Positions 886 through 915 of a stretch of DNA of 13,846 nucleotides are shown in pieces. The position numbers and the translations under genes were made by a program. The DNA comes from a virus (taxonomy: Duplodnaviria; Heunggongvirae; Uroviricota; Caudoviricetes). The notes below the pieces were generated by a model, which saw only the letters and a program-made list of their open reading frames with translations, was not told the DNA's origin and did not search any database. The stretch covers positions 1 to 13,846 of the IMG/VR virus record IMGVR_UViG_2713896897_000012. One strand, given 5' to 3'. Positions within the stretch are counted from its first letter, which is position 1. Each line of letters starts with the position of its first letter.

Positions 886-915
886 CATAAAATTCCGGGT
901 GCGCACCGTTTTTTA
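886..915. terminator. Weak palindrome with flanking A/T runs immediately after the last tail-fibre stop; possible intrinsic terminator
   Basis: Perfect 10-nt palindrome GGTGCGCACC at 898-907, with a T6 run at 909-914 on the plus strand and AAAATT at 889-894. The stem is short (3-4 bp once a loop is allowed), so this is a weak call. Confidence 0.25.

Follow-up and report, generated by a model that had tools for sequence, protein, structure and literature searches.

Introduction

The closest described counterpart of the element analysed here is the tI/sib region of phage lambda. tI/sib lies across attP from int, on the int-sense strand and antisense to the late genes, with tI about 150–185 nt from the attP core, and tI is built as a long-loop hairpin followed by U6. 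In transcripts that read through, sib acts because RNase III cleaves the read-through stem. Located distal to int, sib reduces Int production from the pL transcript (PMC2951348, PMC5300877).

Two further classes of element bear comparison with this locus. Generic intrinsic terminators at convergent junctions are intergenic elements at operon ends, with a G+C-rich stem base, an adjoining U-tract, a stem of 5–14 bp and a loop of 3–8 nt. Real Xer sites have an XerC arm (GGTGCG...AA), a central region of 6–8 bp and a nearly invariant XerD arm, TTATG(T/G)TAAA(T/C); E. coli dif is GGTGCGCATAA-TGTATA-TTATGTTAAAT, and the first 8 nt of the XerC arms of dif and psi are GGTGCGCA (reference Xer-site table quoted in PMC2410131).

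The locus analysed here is the spacer downstream of the last structural gene in 13,846 nt of prophage DNA, the whole of which we call the window. An earlier note on this DNA had singled out a perfect 10-nt palindrome just past the stop codon of that gene and had proposed that it acts as a weak bidirectional terminator that insulates a lipoprotein gene from late-operon read-through, or as a protein-binding site. Our analysis corrects this picture in three respects: the element is a 41-nt hairpin and not the 10-nt palindrome, it is oriented on one strand only, and the lipoprotein gene is not the reason for its presence. We propose, with a probability of about 40%, that positions 868–914 act as a one-way intrinsic terminator for transcripts entering across the attachment site, by analogy with lambda tI/sib.

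Results

The spacer closes the tail module of a lambdoid prophage

The window is identical to contig BBVG01000009 of Escherichia albertii GCA_001514595.1 (locus L013 in our set corresponds to window positions 1–5247 at 100% identity) and derives from a lambdoid prophage of that host. All real genes of the window are on the − strand and make up the prophage's tail module, which includes genes for an E217-like sheath and tube, for baseplate J and DUF2612 proteins and for the tape measure. The 444-aa product of the last late gene has no Pfam match itself, and the domains of its homologues are gp53-like and tail-collar fibre domains. Its TAA stop codon occupies positions 915–913 of the − strand, and a spacer of 210 bp separates it from the DUF7424 lipoprotein gene (Table 1), whose product carries the lipoprotein signal and lipobox MKKYLALCLTLALTGC (lipobox LALTGC); the host gene pabB comes next in the source contig. 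As a side observation, the DUF2612/Phage_Wedge1 baseplate gene (3366–4048, − strand) is split in the window by a 1-nt deletion into ORFs of 122 and 107 aa, while its intact form has 227 aa in L015, L018 and STEC384; the split may reflect either a defective prophage or an assembly error.

A complete relative in E. coli STEC384, at 87–90% identity, reveals the whole element to be a lambdoid prophage. There, one strand carries the late, lysis, ninG and O/P-like replication genes and cro, and the opposite strand carries cI, gam, exo, xis and int, with xis–int aimed at a 50-bp att core. The ends of the STEC384 prophage are a 50-bp direct repeat from the 5′ end of ttcA, and ARAGORN found no tRNA-type att site. 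Across the family, the G-rich direct repeats at the prophage ends (TTTGGGGACAA, TTAGGGGCAAAA and TTTGGGGGCAAA) differ between L013 (5248–5330), L024 (970–1060) and L021 (3975–4040). From their sequence they look like integrase arm-type sites, and the sets track distinct integration sites (pabB, ttcA and frmR). Because the end-repeat sets match different integration sites, phages with different integration modules share this tail module.

Table 1. Coordinates of features at the 3′ end of the late operon (window numbering).
Feature	Position	Strand	Evidence and remarks
DUF7424 lipoprotein gene, the prophage's last gene	1..702	−	Pfam PF24199, E = 4.8e-37; lipobox
Lipoprotein upstream region	703..812	−	Conserved TTCCTAAAAATATTTTTTC, GATCAT, terminator-like leader hairpin 738..718
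Conserved block GTAAAC..CTGGAA..CTCG.AAA, 55 nt	813–867	Downstream of hairpin in operon sense	Alignments
41-nt imperfect inverted repeat, two-tier hairpin	868–908	+	Folding of 860–925; includes the palindrome as one arm
Perfect 10-nt palindrome GGTGCGCACC	898–907	both	G+C-rich hairpin base; 3′ arm on +, 5′ arm on −
T6 run directly 3′ of hairpin	909–914	+	A-run on −, overlapping the fibre stop TAA (915–913)
Last late gene, 444-aa tail-fibre-like protein	913..2247	−	Homologues with PF21882 + PF12571

The palindrome belongs to a larger hairpin

The palindrome is where the earlier note had placed it, next to A/T runs just past the last structural gene: GGTGCGCACC starts 5 nt past the fibre TAA on the − strand, and on the + strand it is preceded by ATAAAATTCC and followed by G and then the T-run. 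It cannot be extended, because positions 897 and 908 are both G. Palindromes of this kind are not enriched in the window, which contains 12 maximal perfect palindromes of at least 10 nt (15.8 ± 4.3 expected from dinucleotide shuffles), four of them with at least 80% G+C (3.7 expected), and the 10-mer itself occurs once at up to one mismatch (0.58 expected). Folded alone, the 10-nt palindrome reaches −0.2 to −3.2 kcal/mol (z about 0.1–0.2) with at most 3 pairs around a 4-nt loop, a negligible stability for the hairpin that the earlier note had envisaged. The palindrome is real, but taken by itself it has no significance as a feature and does not amount to a hairpin.

The terminator-like element suggested for the operon end survives in another form, as the 41-nt hairpin together with the T-run. 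Its outer stem is CGGUGC.CA/UG.GCACCG on the + strand (CGGUGCGCA/UGUGCACCG in operon sense), with 6 G/C-rich pairs at the base that give it the stable stem expected of a terminator. The inner stem of some 5 pairs is short and A/U-rich; it reads GGAAU/AUUCC in relatives and is partly disrupted or weakened in the window. The folding energy of positions 868–908 is −14.6 kcal/mol for the + strand and −15.6 kcal/mol for the − strand; z-scores of the hairpin on the + strand are modest (−0.5 to −4.5). The structure is two-tier with internal loops and lacks the uninterrupted stem and 3–8-nt loop of a compact hairpin. Among the Rfam 15 covariance models there was no match at the gathering score in the window or in four loci, and the matches within positions 600–1100 were noise only (all E ≥ 3.7).

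A U-tract follows the hairpin on one strand only

On the + strand the anatomy is CGGUGCACAGUGGAGCCUCAUAAAAUUCCGGGUGCGCACCG followed by UUUUUUAU, which supplies at least 5 U in 8 nt within 0–2 nt of the stem (tail score 4.9). The tail on the − strand, AUCCUCUC, falls short of such a U-tract (tail score 1.4). The U-tract lies 3′ of the hairpin on the + strand only, because the conserved homopolymer run is a run of A on the operon strand. We scored hairpin and U-tail together with a discriminant d of the d'Aubenton-Carafa form, combined with modern folding energies, so that its zero point is approximate. The window site scored d = +6.8 on the + strand, second best on that strand in 13.8 kb; the same script gave +7.9 for lambda tI and +20.7 for the canonical uspF terminator. 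Among 300 dinucleotide shuffles of positions 691–935, only 2 reached 6.8 on either strand. In relatives, d on the + strand ranged from −9.8 to +21.4, with values below zero in STEC384 (−4.8) and L021 (−9.8), and the values of L015 and L022 are flattered because a gap of 4 nt separates their best fold from the U-run. As a score, d has limited specificity and is alone no proof: a relaxed scan found three other + strand sites with d > 0 within coding sequence. A consensus terminator scan, restricted to loops of 3–8 nt, made no call at 860–915, because the hairpin exceeds the usual stem and loop dimensions; the same scan also misses lambda tI, another long-loop hairpin. The element shares with generic intrinsic terminators the G+C-rich stem base, the adjoining U-tract and the intergenic position at an operon end, but differs from them in being a 41-nt interrupted hairpin and in a primary sequence that is unusually conserved even in the loops.

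On the operon strand, d lay between −27 and −74 in all lineages, and no site in the whole 13.8-kb window exceeded −27; the element is not bidirectional, as had been proposed earlier for the palindrome. That the 10-nt palindrome alone is a weak two-way terminator shielding the lipoprotein gene from late-operon read-through is accordingly very improbable: GGTGCGCACC does sit between A/T runs just after a stop codon, but its few pairs give little stability, the − strand has no U-tract, and the element is independent of the lipoprotein gene, as described below. Lambdoid phages usually rely on a Q-type factor to antiterminate their late transcription, which ignores weak terminators. With no U-tract on the operon strand, late transcripts are expected to continue into the lipoprotein gene and probably run on through it. 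They would extend to the hairpin GTGGCACTCTGCGGGGTGCCAC, which lies past the lipoprotein stop just outside the window, is followed by GTTTTTG in L003 and L022, and is weak by its d score.

The 41-mer is conserved beside diverged flanks

We gathered the homologous junction from 12 further loci, which represent a second E. albertii assembly (L014), the STEC type as found on a chromosome (L001) and in a metagenome contig (L008), three chromosomal sites in E. coli (L015–L017, L018 and L022/L023) and two sites in Salmonella (L021, L028, L029 and L019). Only four versions of the 41-mer occurred among the 12 loci, one of them shared without change by E. coli L018 and Salmonella L021, L028 and L029. 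Between L018 and L021 the 41-mer has 41/41 identities and the next 71 nt have 44 (62%); the chance of 41 straight identities at a rate of 62% is about 3e-9 (calculated by hand). An A5–A9 run is found on the fibre-gene side of the hairpin in every lineage with an intact hairpin, wherever the hairpin sits relative to the fibre gene: abutting the stop codon (the window, L015, L018 and L021), about 30 nt past it (STEC384), or 50 nt from it behind a decayed 55-aa ORF (L028 and L029). L003 differs in the 3′ end of its fibre gene and lacks the whole element, yet retains the lipoprotein gene together with the region upstream of it, so the element is dispensable.

The 10-mer is invariant in all nine lineages bearing the element. 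These include Salmonella L019, in which the surroundings differ, the spacer has diverged and exactly the 10-mer is kept; there it can pair with GCGCGCC 40 nt away around a new inner stem, in a weak fold (−21.3 kcal/mol, z = −1.6). The 55-aa ORF, located between the fibre gene and the palindrome, is intact in this one Salmonella relative (L019 3842–4009); in L028 and L029 decay has left only 9 codons of it, and the window lacks it.

In the collections searched, the element was confined to a small group of prophages. The 20-mer TTCCGGGTGCGCACCGTTTT had one match in GTDB representative genomes (Burkholderia, attributable to chance) and none in IMG/VR, and its five matches in JGI metagenomes were one STEC-type locus and four chance matches in high-G+C sequence. 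A 16-mer gave two unrelated matches in IMG/VR, and comparison of the element with plasmids and phages found no similarity. We therefore rejected a widespread repeat: bar chance matches, the 20-mer is confined to this rare prophage family, and the region was found in 2 of 5426 complete E. coli genomes.

Such rarity would also suit an element with no function of its own, in which recent common descent or module exchange conserves the stretch and the combination of hairpin and T-run is fortuitous. The prophage family is small, L003 manages without the element, and the existence of only four sequence variants means that little evolutionary sampling is available. However, 41 of 41 identities beside a flank at 62% are very unlikely to arise without constraint, few shuffles score as well as the window site, and the hairpin and A-run occur together in different contexts. 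We regard a functionless stretch as improbable.

The pattern of pairing bears on a further explanation, that the hairpin works in the late mRNA (− strand) without terminating it. It would then stabilise the 3′ end of the fibre transcript or mark it for processing, either by blocking 3′–5′ exonucleases or as the target of an RNase. Operon-sense RNA folds equally well or better (−11.1 to −15.6 kcal/mol for the 41-mer, z from −1.5 to −4.3), the hairpin begins 5 nt past the stop codon, and the variant pair U4–G38 of L015 and L022 is a wobble on the − strand only. Against these points, most lineages can form a pair at position 8 on the + strand alone (U–G on +, C·A on −), the conserved A-run would be left without a role, and L028 and L029 retain the element beyond a dead ORF, at 50 nt from the stop. 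The five substitutions in the four haplotypes include none that is compensatory, and they favour neither strand. On balance a role in the late mRNA seems to us rather unlikely.

The hairpin is not tied to the lipoprotein gene

The proposal that the element insulates the lipoprotein gene did not hold up across relatives. The hairpin is present and the gene absent in L021, L022, L028 and L029, and L003 has the gene without the element; the two are therefore not tied to each other. The DUF7424 gene behaves as a moron, a phage-borne accessory gene. In E. albertii and E. coli it comes after the fibre gene. In other Salmonella prophages (L004–L006, 3001–3690) the moron is found elsewhere in the tail module without the hairpin element, between the tail chaperone and tape-measure genes and with its own sense-strand terminator before it. 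In L022 (3950–3975) the gene has been cleanly deleted, and the junction of CCACCACAG with ATACAGTGA retains its last codons. A related-locus search of genome contigs with the lipoprotein query returned no match.

The region upstream of this gene has conserved features of its own. An A/T palindrome, AAAAATATTTTT (776–787), lies within TTCCTAAAAATATTTTTTC, and together with GATCAT (a Dam site) this part of the window (745–790) is conserved upstream of the lipoprotein gene; Salmonella morons also keep GATCAT and part of the A/T block. The block of AAAAATATTTTT and GATCAT probably represents promoter or UP-like elements. A consensus scan of 703..812 called no sigma-70 site, and a weak TTCAAA-18-CATGAT was seen by eye only. 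The terminator-like leader hairpin, TCCGGCTGGAATAAAGCTGGG followed by CGCTCTATTT (718–738, − strand), is located just upstream of the lipoprotein start and is conserved in E. coli relatives.

Resemblance of the invariant half to Xer sites

A stretch of 25 nt that contains the palindrome is free of variation, and the five variable positions of the 41-mer all fall in the other 16 nt, farther from the palindrome; such a skew has a probability of about 0.01–0.02 (by hand) if substitutions were spread evenly. This asymmetry, together with the 10-mer retained in L019, suggests recognition of a specific sequence and not mere pairing. Such recognition might mean that a dimeric regulator or recombinase binds the DNA here, with the palindrome as the centre of its site and the hairpin potential incidental. 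Conservation of the sequence, loops included, well past the needs of pairing or termination favours such a site, as does the operon-sense arrangement GGTGCGCACCC-GGAATT-TTATGAGGCTC (with TTATGAGATTC as the last part in relatives), which has the layout and spacing of dif: positions 886–907 of the − strand show the same 6-bp central spacing as E. coli dif, TTATG starts exactly where an 11-nt arm and a 6-nt centre would place it, and the first 8 nt match the dif and psi XerC arms exactly.

The likeness does not extend to the whole site. As an XerC arm (GGTGCG...AA), GGTGCGCACCC matches at 8 of 11 positions and lacks the inner AA. At the nearly invariant XerD arm, TTATGAGGCTC (the window) and TTATGAGATTC (relatives) match at only 5–6 of 11, for which reason we do not file the element as an Xer site and rejected dif, cer and psi as candidates. 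Unlike real Xer sites, the element is neither at a chromosome terminus nor on a plasmid, and no accessory sequences were identified. L019 has no TTATG at the required spacing. The 49-kb STEC384 prophage holds no second copy; the 4 matches at up to one mismatch (1.8 expected) otherwise fall inside genes. Operators built from copies of the palindrome were rejected, since copies do not exceed chance in the window or in that prophage. No plasmid or phage matches were found, and in the literature we did not find the 10-mer as a bacterial binding site. A protein-binding DNA site is thus an improbable explanation, on a par with a stretch that has no function. It is more doubtful still, to the point of being a long shot, that the invariant half (the A-run and CGGTGCGCACCCGGAATTTTATGAG) is a degenerate half-site of Xer type or of another tyrosine recombinase, lying at a cassette boundary (55-aa ORF, DUF7424 moron) and serving module exchange or genome resolution.

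A second conserved block and small candidate features

The block at 813–867, immediately downstream of the hairpin in operon sense, is retained in loci of E. coli, E. albertii and Salmonella, L003 and L019 among them, and is present even without the hairpin. A degenerate pattern of the block had no match in IMG/VR. Its core, CTGTAAACGAGGTTG, resembles the Mu gix crossover site TTCCTGTAAACCGAGGTTTTGG and is one base short; local alignment of the block to gix/hix scored 24, against a null 99th percentile of 20. We rejected an invertase crossover site of the gix/hix type, given the missing base and an absence of any invertase gene; the block may be a relic of an invertible fibre segment.

Two further candidates were set aside. 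An ORF of 46 aa starting from an ATG in the hairpin loop is open in most lineages, but its synonymous fraction of 0.26 is no higher than that of other frames and its C-termini differ, so we rejected it as a protein. Nor did we find support for a + strand ORF of 25 aa (750–827) or a small RNA ending at the hairpin, for which neither a scan nor inspection by eye found a promoter-like site.

In STEC384 the hairpin occupies the position of lambda tI relative to int

Of the explanations considered, we rank first the reading of the element as a one-way terminator for transcripts that cross the attachment site. In STEC384, the one fully annotated relative and the genome in which the layout was read, the hairpin is on the int-sense strand beyond att, the position of tI/sib in lambda. 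Between att and the fibre gene, that strand has no other terminator-like site. Because xis and int point at att and the site lies beyond it on the same strand, an int transcript would meet the hairpin. The distance to att depends on the moron: in Salmonella prophages without the lipoprotein gene, the hairpin is about 85 nt from the arm-type repeats (GGGGGCA x4) and about 150–250 nt from the prophage end (by reading the sequence), similar to the distance of tI from attP; in the window, the lipoprotein gene puts 0.9 kb of antisense sequence between the site and att.

The likeness to lambda extends to the form of the element. Both sites combine a long-loop hairpin and a following run of U at similar d, and in both, purines upstream could pair with the U-tract in a read-through transcript; here, the predicted GAGGA/UUUUU pairing lengthens the stem to about 19–20 interrupted pairs. 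The hairpin in the window differs from tI in being two-tier and weaker, and in having the lipoprotein moron before it. The likeness is one of arrangement: in a phage collection the element showed no sequence homology to lambda sib, and the lambda sequence is unrelated.

Under the tI-like reading, a polymerase travelling antisense to the late operon, from the att end towards the tail-fibre gene, would be stopped at 868–914. In the circular or replicating phage, the source would be xis–int transcripts crossing attP: after circularisation the transcript would pass from xis–int through attP and the arm-type repeats, then through the lipoprotein gene in antisense, and reach the hairpin and U-tract. 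In the prophage state, read-in from the host would be the source. Termination at the site, these sources of transcripts and any sib-like RNase III retroregulation of int are inferred.

Discussion

A 41-nt hairpin, a U-tract on one strand and their joint conservation replace the palindrome with which this analysis began. For annotation, the lesson is that a short palindrome needs to be examined on each strand and together with the sequence around it.

If the tI-like reading is right, it would be an ordinary finding, a small and unsurprising extension of the classic lambda mechanism to an unrelated sequence. This rare family of E217-tailed lambdoid prophages of E. albertii, E. coli and Salmonella would then keep a stop signal like lambda tI, which would shield the 3′ end of the late operon from int or read-in transcription and could play a part in sib-like control of integrase.
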